Positions 1 to 28,950 of a stretch of 32,000 nucleotides of DNA are shown here, piece after piece. The notes beneath the pieces are model-generated. The model was not told where the DNA came from. It made no database searches and saw nothing but the letters and a program-made list of their open reading frames with translations. The translations under genes and the position numbers were made by a program. Origin of the DNA: Nanoarchaeum equitans Kin4-M (lineage in GTDB: Archaea > Nanobdellota > Nanobdellia > Nanobdellales > Nanoarchaeaceae); assembly GCA_000008085.1 (NCBI GenBank), contig AE017199.1, forward strand, positions 300,001 through 332,000. The letters are read 5' to 3'. Within the stretch, counting starts at the first letter, position 1, and each line of letters begins with the position of its first letter.

Positions 1-1024
1 AAAGCCTCTCCGCTTCTTTTTTTAGTTCTTCAAACCTTTCATCTATTTCTTTCTTTAGTTTATCTCCTATGAAGTAATGGCCAAAAGCATCAACTTTTGC
101 AGCAATAGCAATTTTTGCGGCTAAAGTTCTTGCCATCCTACCTCTTAATTTTTTAGGCAATTTTTGAACATATGGATGGTTAAATAATACTCCATGTTTT
201 GGTGGGGGTGTGCCTTTAGTTAAATGCTTAAACAATGCCTTTTCCGCTCCTAATACTTGGATAGTTGATGCTGGTAAGTAAGCTAATTCTTTTAAACCGC
301 CAGCTAAAGCTAATAACCTCGCTCCAACTAATGGTCCAGCAATAGCTGTTACATTTGGGGCATACCTCTCCATCATTTGTTTTATGTAATTTTGTAATTG
401 CTTTCTAAATTCATACATATCTTTTATTCTTTGAGCGAAAGTCATTAATATTTGTTTGCTTTCCTCATCTATATTACCACCCATTGTTTTGTCTAAGCCC
501 AATTCTTTTAACCATTCTTCTCTCGGTTTCTCTAATACCGCTTTCACAAATTGCTCGTGGTCTTCAAATTTTTTACTTAATTCTGGGAAATATAATTCAT
601 ACCATTCTCTAAACCTTTCCATCATTAAGTTTAATATTTTATTAGTATCGTCCAAAGCTTTTATTGCTTGTATTATTAACCAGTCATGGCTAACACTTTC
701 ACTTAGCTCTCTTATTGTTACCTCGTATTGCACATCTCTAATATAAGAGAAATTATCATTTTCTCTCGCATAGAATAGAGCTTTATTTATTAGTTTTGTG
801 TTTAAATCTAAGGGCAAATCTAATCCCTTATAAGCCCTTCCTAATATTTTTAATTCATATTTGCTTTTAAGTTTGTCAATTTCTCCTTTTAGTGATTCTG
901 GTAATATTCCTTTTTTTAATTTGTATGCTTCTTCTTCACTAAATTCCATTGGCTTATATTCCAATAAAGTACCATCTTCATCTAAAACATATAGGCCATT
1001 CAAATGTATAAATAGGTAAGCCAT
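1..1024 (-). CDS. nop5: Nop5 (Nop56/58) C/D box sRNP core protein; 3' end runs off the window start
   Basis: Not in ORF track (edge-truncated). Own translation from ATG (revcomp of 1022-1024): MAYLFIHLNGLYVLDEDG... with NOP-domain strings AGPLVGARLLALAGGLKELAYLPASTIQVLGAEKALFKHL and GRMARTLAAKIAIAAKVDAFG. TATA-like TTATAAAT lies ~27 nt upstream. Confidence 0.9.
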   Translation of the reverse strand, partial: MAYLFIHLNGLYVLDEDGTLLEYKPMEFSEEEAYKLKKGILPESLKGEIDKLKSKYELKILGRAYKGLDLPLDLNTKLINKALFYARENDNFSYIRDVQYEVTIRELSESVSHDWLIIQAIKALDDTNKILNLMMERFREWYELYFPELSKKFEDHEQFVKAVLEKPREEWLKELGLDKTMGGNIDEESKQILMTFAQRIKDMYEFRKQLQNYIKQMMERYAPNVTAIAGPLVGARLLALAGGLKELAYLPASTIQVLGAEKALFKHLTKGTPPPKHGVLFNHPYVQKLPKKLRGRMARTLAAKIAIAAKVDAFGHYFIGDKLKKEIDERFEELKKEAERL

Positions 1025-3954: not shown

Positions 3955-4030
3955 AGAGATATAGGATGTTATTTTTTAAGTTAGGAGAAACAGGCTTTTC
4001 TTTAAACAATAACGAAGAATTACAATGGTA

Positions 4031-4038
4031 TTTTTAAA
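4031..4038 (+). promoter_or_regulatory. TATA box of tRNA-Leu
   Basis: TTTTTAAA starts 28 nt upstream of tRNA nt 1. Same box and spacing as the other RNA genes in the window. Confidence 0.6.
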
Positions 4039-4058
4039 TGGTGTGTTATATATGCACT

Positions 4059-4142
4059 GCGGCCGTGCCCGAGCGGTCGAAGGGGTCGGGCTCAAGACCC
4101 GATGGGTTAGTCCCGTCCGGGGTTCGAATCCCCGCGGCCGCA
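4059..4142 (+). tRNA. tRNA-Leu(CAA), no encoded CCA
   Basis: Hand-folded. Acceptor GCGGCCG/CGGCCGC, anticodon stem UCGGG/CCCGA, loop CUCAAGA, long variable arm UGGGUUAGUCCCGUC, T arm CGGGG-UUCGAAU-CCCCG, discriminator A. Confidence 0.95.
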
Positions 4143-5006
4143 TTTGGTAATTTTATCTGCCACTTCTATAGGCAATAAATATTTTTTAGAATTCCATTCC
4201 TTTATAAACTCTTTCAGAAACTCTAAATTTGTTCTATTTCCAATAGTTACATAATGCCCAACAAAATAACCGACTGGCATATTATGGGCATAAATTATAT
4301 TGTTCTTTATTTTCCCATATAGCAATTTTTTAGCATCTCCAATTGTGGGCAAATCTAAGACGGTTCCAACAAAAGTTGCTAAGCCCATTTTTCTAGGATG
4401 GGAAAGGCCATGTCCATTAATTATATATAAGGCAGTGTAGTCTAAATCTTTTAGTATATTTACAATAGGGATTCCTTCCCGGAAAGATAGATATGTTGGT
4501 ATATAAGGAAACTCTATATTATGTTTGCAGGTTTTGGTTTCTATTAGCTTTTTGTTTTTGTCAAATATGGCTAAGGCTATAATATTATTTTTGTACCCAA
4601 TGTCTATTCCAATAACATAATCATATTCGGGATAATCAAATTTTATTTTGTTTACCAAATATTCCTGTATTTTTTGCAATTCTAATAAAGGTTTGCTCGA
4701 TTTGAAATCCTTAAATATTGGGGCATAAACTTTGTTTCCTATTATTTTAACTTCTTTCTCTAACAAAGCTTTTTGCATAGGGCTTACTATTAAATTAGAG
4801 CTTACAACCCTATACCAATGAGGAGCTTTTTTATAATACATTGCTACAAACTTTGTTGCTATTGGGTCTCCTAAAGCTTTGGCCAATTCTTTAAATGTGG
4901 TAACATAGCCCTTGGGTATTTGCTCTATTAAGTTTATTAGTTCGTTTATTAATCGTTTGCCAAACTTGTTCCAATAATTTATATCTAATAATTTAGAAGA
5001 AAGCAA
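4107..5006 (-). CDS. nfi: fusion of an alkyltransferase-like (MGMT DNA-binding) domain and endonuclease V
   Basis: N-terminus PKGYVTTFKELAKALGDPIATKFV...APHWYRVV matches the AGT DNA-binding domain with the PCHR cysteine missing. C-terminus has EndoV motifs YVIGIDIGY, YIPTYLSFREG, INGHGLSHPRKMGLATFVG and PTIGDAKK. The last 36 nt overlap tRNA-Leu antisense. Confidence 0.85.
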   Translation of the reverse strand: MLSSKLLDINYWNKFGKRLINELINLIEQIPKGYVTTFKELAKALGDPIATKFVAMYYKKAPHWYRVVSSNLIVSPMQKALLEKEVKIIGNKVYAPIFKDFKSSKPLLELQKIQEYLVNKIKFDYPEYDYVIGIDIGYKNNIIALAIFDKNKKLIETKTCKHNIEFPYIPTYLSFREGIPIVNILKDLDYTALYIINGHGLSHPRKMGLATFVGTVLDLPTIGDAKKLLYGKIKNNIIYAHNMPVGYFVGHYVTIGNRTNLEFLKEFIKEWNSKKYLLPIEVADKITKCGRGDSNPGRD

Positions 5007-8514: not shown

Positions 8515-8533
8515 AATCCATTAATAGGGTTTT

Positions 8534-8618
8534 GCCGCCGTGCCCGAGCGGACCAAGGGGTTCGGCTTGAGACCGAATCCCCGATAAGGGGGCGGGGGTT
8601 CGAATCCCCCCGGCGGCG
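8534..8618 (+). tRNA. tRNA-Ser(UGA)
   Basis: Hand-folded. Acceptor GCCGCCG/CGGCGGC, anticodon stem UUCGG/CCGAA, loop CUUGAGA, long variable arm UCCCCGAUAAGGGGGC, T arm GGGGG-UUCGAAU-CCCCC, discriminator G. Confidence 0.95.
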
Positions 8619-8652
8619 GCCATATATAAAGCTATCGAAAATATAACACCAT

Positions 8653-9679: not shown

Positions 9680-9751
9680 GGGCCCGTAGTCTAGGGGGAA
9701 GACGCCGGGTTCGGGTCCCGGAGATCGCGGGTTCGAATCCCGCCGGGCCCA
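9680..9751 (+). tRNA. tRNA-Pro(CGG)
   Basis: Hand-folded. Acceptor GGGCCCG/CGGGCCC, anticodon stem CCGGG/CCCGG, loop UUCGGGU, T arm GCGGG-UUCGAAU-CCCGC, discriminator A. Confidence 0.95.
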
Positions 9752-15971: not shown

Positions 15972-15991
15972 AAATAAGCAAAATATTAAAA

Positions 15992-16045
15992 AATCAGCAG
16001 CGGCAGAAACTCTTCACTAATCATGGCTCAAGACCTTCATCATCC
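15992..16045 (-). ncRNA. C/D box sRNA; D' guide matches tRNA-Leu(CAA) anticodon loop
   Basis: Minus strand reads GG-AUGAUGA-AGGUCUUGAGCC(12)-AUGA-UUA-GUGAAGA-GUUUCUGCCGCUG(13)-CUGA-UUUUUU. TTTTTAAA lies 28 nt upstream. Confidence 0.75.
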
Positions 16046-16065
16046 AATTAATAAATAAAAATCCA

Positions 16066-16073
16066 TTTAAAAA
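16066..16073 (-). promoter_or_regulatory. TATA box of C/D sRNA 15992-16045
   Basis: TTTTTAAA on the minus strand, starting 28 nt upstream of the GG preceding box C. Confidence 0.55.
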
Positions 16074-16075
16074 AT

Positions 16076-16846
16076 ATGGATCCTGAAAAGACCGCTATAG
16101 TATACAAATTTGCCCAGCAAGTTTATGAAAAATTAGGCATTCTATTAAAAGCAGTAATATTGTTTGGTTCTGCAGCGGAAGAAAAAGATAAAGAACAAAG
16201 TGATTTGGATGTTTTACTAATATTAGATGATTTAGCAACAGATTGGGAAATGGTAAAACCAGTAATAGAGAAATATTTAGATTCTTTACTAAAAAAGGAA
16301 GAATTTAGCAAAATACATCTAAATGCTGTGACATTATCTTTCTTTTGGAGAGCAATAATTAAAAGAGATCCAATAGCTATTAATATTATTAGGGTAGGAA
16401 TTCCTATTTTTGATAGCGGTTTCTTTAGCCCATTGAAAAAACTATTGAGTACCGGTTTATTGGGCCCAACAAGAGAAACTATTTTGGATTATGCTAATAA
16501 AGTTGAATATGATTATGGTTCTTATTTGGGATATAAAATTAAAGCTTTGGAATTTTTGTATTGGGTTTTTACCCATAGCGCGCAAGCAGCTATTATGTTA
16601 TTGTATAATGAAATACCCCCTCCAAAATATGTTCCTATGTATCTTAAAAAAATGGAAAACGAAAAAATTATTCCTAAACCTTATGCAAAATGGTATGAAG
16701 AAATATATTCACTAATAAAAAAGATCTCACATGGAGAAATAACAAATTTTGATTCTTGTTTATTAGACAAATGGGAAAAAAGGGCAAAAACTTTCGCTAA
16801 GAAAATGGAAGAGATTATATCTAAAAATCTTAAAAAGGCCCTATAA
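16076..16846 (+). CDS. Pol-beta superfamily nucleotidyltransferase with C-terminal helical (HEPN/KNTase-like) domain
   Basis: 256 aa. NTase motif LFGSAAEEKDKEQSDLDVLLILDD, followed by a ~130-aa all-helical region. Confidence 0.65.
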   Translation: MDPEKTAIVYKFAQQVYEKLGILLKAVILFGSAAEEKDKEQSDLDVLLILDDLATDWEMVKPVIEKYLDSLLKKEEFSKIHLNAVTLSFFWRAIIKRDPIAINIIRVGIPIFDSGFFSPLKKLLSTGLLGPTRETILDYANKVEYDYGSYLGYKIKALEFLYWVFTHSAQAAIMLLYNEIPPPKYVPMYLKKMENEKIIPKPYAKWYEEIYSLIKKISHGEITNFDSCLLDKWEKRAKTFAKKMEEIISKNLKKAL

Positions 16847-22937: not shown

Positions 22938-23008
22938 TGCGCCCGCCGGGATTCGAACCCGGGTCACGGGCTTGGGGGGCCCGCATCCTACCCCTAGACT
23001 ACGGGCGC
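22938..23008 (-). tRNA. tRNA-Gly(CCC) with C at position 33
   Basis: Hand-folded from revcomp. Acceptor GCGCCCG/CGGGCGC, anticodon stem CGGGC/GCCCG, loop CCCCCAA, 4-nt variable loop, T arm CCGGG-UUCGAAU-CCCGG, discriminator A. It abuts the helicase stop codon. Confidence 0.88.
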
Positions 23009-27361: not shown

Positions 27362-27500
27362 GCCGCCGTAGCTCAGCGGTCAGAGCGCCCGGCTCATAGC
27401 ATGGGCTATGAGCTCTGACCCGAAAGGGGATGATCTCGGGGGCTCTTATGCCCCCTCGTGAGAAACCGGGAGGTCGCGGGTTCGAATCCCGCCGGCGGCA
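27362..27500 (+). tRNA. tRNA with anticodon CAU (elongator Met or Ile2) interrupted by a 66-nt intron after nt 37
   Basis: Exon 1 GCCGCCG-UA-GCUC-AGCGGUCA-GAGC-G-CCCGG-CUCAUA. Exon 2 A-CCGGG-AGGUC-GCGGG-UUCGAAU-CCCGC-CGGCGGC-A. The mature loop is CUCAUAA. Confidence 0.9.
27399..27464 (+). other. tRNA intron (canonical 37/38 position)
   Basis: A BHB-compatible drawing exists. The anticodon stem is followed by a 3-nt bulge A27463-A27465 on the 3' strand, a 4-bp helix C27393-A27396 / U27459-G27462, and a bulge U27397-G27399 on the 5' strand. An internal GC hairpin GGGGGC-UCUUAU-GCCCCC lies at 27438-27455. Confidence 0.7.
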
Positions 27501-28872: not shown

Positions 28873-28898
28873 AGAATAGTTATTCTAAACCATTAAAA

Positions 28899-28950
28899 TA
28901 TCTGAGCCTCTGGCATTCATCATTTCTCAGCAACGACAGGACTCTTCACA
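28899..28950 (-). ncRNA. C/D box sRNA candidate with degenerate terminal boxes
   Basis: Minus strand reads GUGAAGA-GUCCUGUCGUUG(12)-CUGA-GAA-AUGAUGA-AUGCCAGAGGCU(12)-CAGA. Both spacers are 12 nt. The internal D'/C' boxes are canonical; terminal C (UGAAGA) and D (CAGA) are variants. Confidence 0.55.

Follow-up and report, generated by a model that had tools for sequence, protein, structure and literature searches.

Box C/D sRNA12 of Nanoarchaeum equitans and its predicted target, the wobble cytidine of tRNA-Leu(CAA)

The sRNA12 gene

This report concerns sRNA12 (NeqsR12), a box C/D small RNA (sRNA) encoded on the minus strand of a 32,000-nucleotide (nt) stretch of the Nanoarchaeum equitans Kin4-M genome (AE017199.1, positions 300,001 to 332,000; hereafter the window), and the transfer RNA (tRNA) that one of its two guides is predicted to modify, tRNA-Leu(CAA), encoded in the same window (Table 1). 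The sRNA itself is already known: it was predicted at genome annotation and mapped by RNA sequencing (RNA-seq) in 2012, with ends at 316045 and 315990 and 23,000 mapped reads (Randau 2012, PMC3491384, Additional file 2), where its entry is annotated 'snoscan C/D box sRNA10', and it was listed again, as NeqsR12, by Dennis et al. (2015, PMC4644070). Its length fits the small transcript of ∼50–70 nt that is expected of an archaeal box C/D sRNA.

On the minus strand, from 16045 to 15990, the RNA reads GG AUGAUGA AGGUCUUGAGCC AUGA UUA GUGAAGA GUUUCUGCCGCUG CUGA UUUU. It possesses the features by which archaeal box C/D sRNAs are recognized, namely terminal boxes C and D, internal boxes D' and C' separated by a short linker, spacers of ∼12 nt, and guides that pair with other RNAs. 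I parsed 25 published N. equitans sRNAs, and the layout of sRNA12 is shared with the other 24; a linker of 3 nt is typical of the set, and the AUGA variant of box D' is also present in sRNA4. sRNA12 is a genuine archaeal box C/D sRNA, expressed and abundant.

A TATA box, TTTTTAAA, is located upstream of the RNA-seq 5' end. Either TTTTTAAA or a TTTATAA-type box also begins at −28 or −27 upstream of tRNA-Leu(CAA), tRNA-Ser(UGA) and sRNAs 13, 15 and 16, and this recurring position before stable-RNA genes supports the promoter call for sRNA12. An identical 12-mer, ATTTTTAAATGG, is found in the sRNA12 promoter (16063–16074, minus strand) and in that of tRNA-Leu(CAA) (4030–4041, plus strand), and the distance from the TATA box to the RNA start (−28 to −21) is exactly equal for the two genes. 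The shared 12-mer probably reflects no more than a promoter consensus for stable RNAs in N. equitans, because similar boxes stand at −28 or −27 before tRNA-Ser and sRNAs 13, 15 and 16.

A preliminary description of this DNA, made from its letters alone, had proposed the minus-strand boxes, spacers, linker and U6 run, a TATA-type box 28 nt upstream, a transcript of ∼54 nt, and a nop5 gene at the window start. All the sRNA elements are present where it placed them, the upstream box is the TTTTTAAA that recurs at other stable-RNA genes, the published RNA-seq gives 56 nt, and the nop5 gene is confirmed by its Nop domain.

Table 1. Position and basis of sRNA12, its elements and related features (numbered from the first letter of the window).
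Feature	Position	Strand	Basis or remark
Mature box C/D sRNA, N. equitans sRNA12 / NeqsR12, 56 nt	15990..16045	-	Sequence identical to Randau 2012 Additional file 2 and Dennis 2015 supplement
Box C AUGAUGA	16037..16043	-	Fits RUGAUGA consensus
D' guide AGGUCUUGAGCC, 12 nt	16025..16036	-	Positions 1–11 from D' pair with tRNA-Leu(CAA) G30–C40
Box D' AUGA, variant of CUGA	16021..16024	-	Sequence reading
Linker UUA, 3 nt	16018..16020	-	Sequence reading
Box C' GUGAAGA, after UUA linker; kink-loop (K-loop) arrangement	16011..16017	-	Sequence reading
D guide GUUUCUGCCGCUG, 13 nt	15998..16010	-	Pairs with N. equitans 23S rRNA CAGCGGCAGG
Box D CUGA	15994..15997	-	Sequence reading
T6 run, oligo-T terminator	15988..15993	-	RNA-seq 3' end falls within T run
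TATA box TTTTTAAA	16066..16073	-	−28 to −21 relative to RNA-seq 5' end
tRNA-Leu(CAA), predicted substrate; guide-complementary part 4089–4099 (G30–C40), predicted 2'-O-methylcytidine 34 (Cm34) at 4093	4058..4143	+	ARAGORN and Rfam
tRNA-Ser(UGA) G30–C40 GGCUUGAGACC, possible secondary D' guide site	8564..8574, inside tRNA 8533–8622	+	9 Watson-Crick + 2 G.U pairs, G.U at N+5 (U34)
tRNA-Met(CAU) with 66-nt intron 27399–27464	27362–27500	+	Intron guide 27403–27414, CUGA 27415–27418
Nop5/Nop56 (NEQ342), box C/D RNP core scaffold protein; runs off window start	2..1024	-	Pfam Nop domain, E = 2.4e-62

Candidate targets of the two guides

The window holds two copies of the string GGCTCAAGACC and no more, one at 16025–16035 within the sRNA12 gene and one at 4089–4099 within tRNA-Leu(CAA). 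Because the tRNA is called at 4058–4143, with its anticodon starting at 4093, the second occurrence corresponds to G30–C40, with which the D' guide forms 11 consecutive Watson-Crick pairs. The guide is antisense to the anticodon loop CUCAAGA, and the stem flanks at positions 30, 31, 39 and 40 are all Watson-Crick paired. G16029, the fifth guide nucleotide upstream of box D', pairs with C4093, that is C34, which places the wobble base at the N+5 position; the twelfth guide position (A) lies opposite C41, a mismatch. This pairing is above the criterion usual in the field, at least 9 contiguous Watson-Crick pairs around N+5 (PMC6009581), and the calculated energy of the duplex is −21.1 kcal/mol at 37 °C and −7.6 kcal/mol at 80 °C.

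I then scored the 50 guides of these 25 sRNAs against the five tRNAs of the window, with tRNA-Met both spliced and unspliced. In the 300 comparisons that result, the length of the longest Watson-Crick run across N+5 has a mode of 4 and runners-up of 9, 9, 8 and 8, and a run of 11 is reached solely by the sRNA12 D' guide against tRNA-Leu(CAA). The preliminary description had reported the 11-nt match with its distal mismatch and C34 at N+5, which holds in every detail, and had allowed that the match might be no better than others; in these comparisons the pair is a lone outlier. For the D' guide, C34 of tRNA-Leu(CAA) is the best match by a wide margin.

The D guide pairs with CAGCGGCAGG of 23S ribosomal RNA (rRNA), as read from the alignment of Dennis et al. 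(2015), through 9 Watson-Crick pairs and 1 G.U pair (−18.9 kcal/mol at 37 °C). The same site was predicted by PLEXY (PMC3491384), with a G, 23S-2309, at N+5; in a rough, by-eye alignment this position is close to E. coli G2230. Judged by its pairing, this 23S site is a credible target. The preliminary description had found no target for this guide in the window and had suggested a search of rRNA, and both points are borne out: the D guide has no in-window target because its likely target is 23S rRNA, where the match was already published as 23S-2309. The same 23S site CAGCGGCAGG can also pair over 10 nt (8 Watson-Crick and 2 G.U) with GUCCUGUCGUUG, the D' guide of sRNA16 (gene at 28897–28949, minus strand), for which the published target is 16S-1158. 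Going by these pairings, the two sRNAs, both encoded in the window, may converge on one 23S position.

For the D' guide, two sites in 23S rRNA have been published. PLEXY assigned it to '23S-17', a site at the 5' end, GGCUCGGGAGCC, with 7 Watson-Crick and 2 G.U pairs followed by a mismatch (PMC3491384). In the 23S alignment of Dennis et al. (2015), the label N12 stands at the D-guide site, ACAGCGGCAGGU, and again at GGCUCAGGCGGG, a site 68 nt downstream with just 7 Watson-Crick pairs and 1 G.U pair to the D' guide. Both target lists come from searches of rRNA only, and tRNA targets 'are not catalogued' according to Dennis et al. (2015, PMC4644070). Both sites fall under the criterion of 9 Watson-Crick pairs, with duplex energies of −15.9 kcal/mol (5'-end site) and −13.1 kcal/mol (site near the D target) at 37 °C, and the energies put tRNA-Leu(CAA) first among the four candidate targets of the D' guide.

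It could be argued that sRNA12 is a dual guide for rRNA only, with the D' guide acting on GGCUCAGG, 68 nt downstream of the D target (close to E. coli 2297), or on GGCUCGGGAGCC, and that the match to the tRNA is coincidental. The PLEXY assignment and the N12 labels speak for this, as do the typical dual-guide geometry of two 23S sites within 100 nt and a relaxed 32-bit rule (PMC6009581), which is passed with 19 + 15 = 34 bits as I counted them. However, neither site exceeds 7 Watson-Crick pairs (8 or 9 pairs in total with G.U), and both duplexes are weak at growth temperature (−4.0 kcal/mol at 80 °C for the site near the D target and −3.6 kcal/mol for the 5'-end site). In a shuffle test on ∼960 nt of N. 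equitans 23S rRNA taken from the published alignment, with scoring within the same 200-nt span of that rRNA, the score of the sRNA12 D' guide at the site near the D target is equalled or exceeded by 8% of shuffled D' guides and by 7 of 48 other N. equitans guides. The match there is therefore at chance level, and I rejected this site as the primary D' target. At guide positions 7, 9, 10 and 11, the four at which the candidate targets can be told apart, the D' guide agrees with the tRNA each time and never with the rRNA. In other archaea, guides built on this core carry A/U flanks, which by eye leave ∼7 pairs with the conserved 23S site. An rRNA-only role for the D' guide is thus highly improbable.

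A different possibility is raised by tRNA-Ser(UGA). Apart from positions 34 and 35, its anticodon arm is the same as in tRNA-Leu(CAA), and the D' guide can form an 11-nt duplex with it (−18.4 kcal/mol at 37 °C and −4.8 kcal/mol at 80 °C); a secondary or non-methylating interaction with this tRNA is possible on the basis of the pairing. The D' guide might accordingly serve C34 of tRNA-Leu(CAA) together with other RNAs sharing a GGCUC core, such as U34 of tRNA-Ser(UGA) and the two 23S sites, both of which start with GGCUC, either by methylating them or as a folding chaperone. Some guides do have more than one target (Dennis et al. 2015, PMC4644070), and sRNAs combining a tRNA and an rRNA guide seem to exist in Micrarchaeota (described below). 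Yet methylation reportedly requires Watson-Crick pairing at N+5 (PMC6009581), a position at which tRNA-Ser(UGA) forms a G.U pair; the 23S matches are at chance level, and imperfect duplexes are marginal at 80–90 °C. I consider such a set of substrates unlikely. With regard to targets, the preliminary description was correct in naming tRNA-Leu(CAA) as the best complement of the D' guide, but it missed the rival 23S sites, the 23S target of the D guide and the near-match in tRNA-Ser(UGA).

The Leu guide in other archaea and in known systems

To gauge how common the guide module is, I scanned a collection holding one genome per prokaryotic species for the arrangement [box C or C']-N(1-4)-UCUUGAG-NN-[box D' or D], written as TGATGA-N(1-4)-TCTTGAG-NN-NTGA-N(3-10)-TGANGA. 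N. equitans itself is absent from this collection and from the metagenome collection. The scan returned 27 matches, 15 archaeal and 12 bacterial, against ∼9 expected by chance from the collection size. Archaea make up a few per cent of one-genome-per-species collections (GTDB), so that 15 archaeal matches among 27 represent a strong enrichment. The bacterial matches look like chance, while the archaeal ones resolve into complete C/D sRNAs. A by-eye comparison of flank self-complementarity found that the bacterial matches are often compatible as well, and it was not used as evidence. A scan of the metagenome collection with the D guide fixed and any D' guide allowed gave 8 matches, all of them chance matches inside coding repeats.

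The Leu guide is found in either slot. It occupies the D' slot in Desulfurococcales and Thermoproteota (loci L005, L016 and L024), in Micrarchaeota and relatives (L006, L025 and L028) and in Woesearchaeota (L030), where the guide, CGGUCUUGAGCC, is identical to that of N. equitans at positions 1–11. It occupies the D slot in L012, L013, L015, L026 and the Thermococcus locus L021. A further example is the experimentally detected Sac-sR108 of Sulfolobus acidocaldarius, in which AGGUCUUGAGUA is followed by CUGA. Judging from their sequences, the guides of L005–L030 and of Sac-sR108 are predicted to target tRNA-Leu(CAA). The partner guides are unrelated between lineages, the conserved part being the tRNA-directed module.

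The flanks of the guide track the tRNA stem. The G31–C39 pair of N. equitans tRNA-Leu(CAA) is matched by C at guide position 2 and G at position 10, and the A31–U39 pair of Thermococcales, read from the primers for the P. abyssi tRNA (PMC3413156), by U2 and A10 in the L021 guide. This is a compensatory change, seen in one cross-phylum comparison.

Beside the Leu D' guide, the three loci from Micrarchaeota and related metagenome-assembled genomes carry the D guide UAGACGGGCGGU or variants of it (L006 6796–6833, L025 3056–3086 and L028 2265–2296). Aligned by eye, UAGACGGGCGGU seems able to pair with 16S rRNA ACCGCCCGUC, an arrangement in which the equivalent of C1402 would stand at N+5. Mixed tRNA/rRNA dual guides thus seem to occur outside N. 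equitans too.

Among characterized systems, the closest is sR47 of Pyrococcus abyssi, the ribonucleoprotein (RNP) of which (L7Ae, Nop5 and fibrillarin) methylates C34 of tRNA-Leu(CAA) in vitro via the guide upstream of box D (PMC3413156). More broadly, position 34 of tRNAs is targeted by four Pyrococcus sRNAs (PMC7994747), and C34 of P. furiosus tRNA-Leu(CAA) is a predicted target in the Lowe-lab database, as quoted in PMC7668247. sRNA12 shares with sR47 the type of RNP, the substrate tRNA, the target C34 and the core UCUUGAG with C34 at N+5, and the Thermococcus counterpart (L021) was recovered with the same layout as sR47. In contrast, sR47 is 64 nt long and sRNA12 56 nt, the guide is in the D slot in sR47 and in the D' slot in sRNA12, the partner guides are unrelated, and the flanks correspond to A31–U39 in Pyrococcus and to G31–C39 in N. 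equitans. An Rfam scan with sRNA12 (E <= 10) did not match sR47, and in that comparison no homology was detected beyond the boxes and the guide.

In the same scan no family reached its gathering threshold. The top match was RF01138, sR23, a Pyrococcus C/D sRNA (30.7 bits, E = 8.2e-06), with alignment of the boxes over the full length and a similar D' guide (UCUGGAGCC vs UCUUGAGCC). The guide of sR23, however, reads CCA (a Trp-like anticodon loop) and not CAA, and since the score lies under the 45-bit gathering threshold, sRNA12 is not a member of sR23. Sac-sR108 and seven of the archaeal loci (L005, L016, L024, L006, L025, L028 and L030) resemble sRNA12 in having UCUUGAG, 2 nt and then box D or D'; they differ in their partner guides, and the D'-type sRNAs have the canonical CUGA as box D', in place of AUGA. 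Intron-borne C34 guides likewise direct 2'-O-methylation of a wobble C34 through a C/D guide, but they sit within the intron of the substrate itself, whereas sRNA12 is a separate gene 12 kb from that of its substrate, with predicted action in trans.

Two counterparts from outside archaea are stand-alone proteins. In eukaryotes, Trm7/FTSJ1 generates the same chemical product on tRNA-Leu. In bacteria TrmL (YibK) does so, forming Cm34 or cmnm5Um34 on tRNA-Leu (PMC6313347), as the preliminary description had correctly said. These enzymes differ from the present system in recognizing the tRNA directly, without a guide RNA, and are unrelated to fibrillarin RNPs. The same description had cast an RNA-guided route in N. 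equitans as a compact-genome solution, which does not hold: large-genome archaea from several phyla possess the module as well. A compact-genome invention is accordingly rejected, given the module in Thermococcus, Sulfolobus, Desulfurococcales and others. An RNA-guided route to Cm34 on tRNA-Leu(CAA) was already known, and the mechanism is the one usual for archaea.

Proposed function and genomic context

Several points weigh against a role of the D' guide in modifying tRNA-Leu(CAA). The two published D' assignments are to 23S rRNA (PLEXY '23S-17' and the Dennis 2015 site), and the second fits the usual pattern of dual rRNA guides, being only 68 nt from the D target. Use of the guide needs two G-C pairs of the anticodon stem to be unwound, the covariation of guide and tRNA comes from the single comparison given above, and a review (PMC6313347) has no tRNA modification data for N. 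equitans. A tRNA-Leu(CAA) gene was sought in the 15 retrieved archaeal loci and found in none (0 of 15), and no orthologue was retrieved from another member of the Nanoarchaeota. Finally, boxes D' and C' are each one base off consensus.

This last point would agree with an orphan D' guide, only the D guide (on 23S rRNA) being used and a degenerate C'/D' motif (AUGA and GUGAAGA) forming no active site, all the more as archaea often have orphan guides (28% in Pyrobaculum; PMC6009581). Such a reading is barely conceivable in the face of a perfect 11-pair match with the wobble position exactly at N+5, very unlikely without selection, of a D' spacer of optimal length (12 nt), and of a module conserved across archaeal phyla. 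From the pairing and from comparison with known systems, the function of the D' guide is very probably the formation of Cm34 on tRNA-Leu(CAA).

In the mechanism that I propose, sRNA12 would be transcribed on its own from the TATA box at −28, with its end in the oligo-T run. By analogy with the family, L7Ae would bind the C/D kink-turn and the C'/D' K-loop, and a Nop5 dimer (NEQ342) and two fibrillarins (NEQ125, reported in the N. equitans genome) would complete the RNP. The D' guide would melt the G30–C40 and G31–C39 pairs of the lower anticodon stem and pair with nucleotides 30–40. C34 would then face the fifth guide nucleotide counted from D', and its ribose would enter the fibrillarin active site and yield Cm34. 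The D guide, on 23S CAGCGGCAGG, would direct formation of 2'-O-methylguanosine (Gm) at 23S-2309.

Other guides touch the tRNAs of the window. Upstream of CUGA in the intron of tRNA-Met(CAU), GGGCUAUGAGCU forms 9 Watson-Crick pairs with GCUCAUAGC, made up of G31–A37 of its own pre-tRNA and the two nucleotides at the start of the intron, placing C34 (27395) at N+5. After splicing the pairing is poorer, A38 being mismatched. By its sequence this intron looks like a Cm34 guide that, like the one in Haloferax tRNA-Trp, acts on the precursor; Randau (2012, PMC3491384) goes no further than stating that the intron 'potentially' guides methylation. NeqsR07, encoded outside the window (genome positions 145962–146019), has a D' guide, CGCUAGACUACU, that forms 9 Watson-Crick pairs with GUAGUCUAG, tRNA nucleotides 7–15, with G10 at N+5. 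This target string is present in both tRNA-Pro(CGG) (9680–9751, plus strand) and tRNA-Gly(CCC) (22938–23008, minus strand). The D guide of NeqsR07 forms 8 Watson-Crick pairs with CCGGGUUC, which tRNA-Gly(CCC) has in its T arm and tRNA-Pro(CGG) in its anticodon arm. The published predictions for NeqsR07 hold one 23S site only.

Regarding the neighbouring genes, NEQ342 is named NOP56 by Randau (2012, PMC3491384). On the minus strand, the TATA box of sRNA12 (16066–16073) almost touches the NEQ362 start codon, an ATG at 16076 on the plus strand, and an A/T-rich stretch between the sRNA12 start and this ATG (∼16049–16063) could be the NEQ362 promoter. By this reading of the sequence, two divergent promoters could lie within ∼30 bp (16046–16076), implying a leaderless or near-leaderless NEQ362 mRNA. 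NEQ362 has no homologue beyond itself among 5.8 billion proteins, and its gene lies on four metagenome or assembly contigs, which show 100% identity over sRNA12. A 299-amino-acid open reading frame (4107–5006, minus strand) joins a DNA-binding domain of O6-methylguanine-DNA-methyltransferase type to endonuclease V, and the 3' end listed for it shares 4107–4143 with the 3' end of the tRNA-Leu(CAA) gene on the opposite strand. The G+C content of the window is ∼31%, the tRNAs being G+C-rich.

The finding leaves knowledge of how C/D RNPs work unchanged and opens no long-standing question. Its only new element seems to be C34 of tRNA-Leu(CAA) as the predicted D' target in N. equitans, which may itself already be recorded. 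It amounts to a proposed correction of a target, from the weak 23S sites given by two rRNA-only lists to a far better one, the wobble C34 of tRNA-Leu(CAA). The occurrence of the Leu C34 module in several archaeal phyla, DPANN included, and in either guide slot, is of use for tracing the evolution of guide modules. It is conceivable, though I think it doubtful, that sRNA12 is a multiplexed guide, combining Cm34 on the tRNA (D') and Gm on 23S rRNA (D) in one RNP, with the D' guide also engaging U34 of tRNA-Ser(UGA) and a 23S cytidine close to E. coli 2297. If so, genome reduction would have been met by wider guide specificity rather than by more guides, stretching a repertoire of only 26 sRNAs. 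For the preferred function, Cm34 formation on tRNA-Leu(CAA), the tRNA-Met intron guide is relevant too: two guides in the same window both point at C34, which suggests that this minimal archaeon keeps the RNA-guided route to wobble Cm34 on at least two tRNAs.

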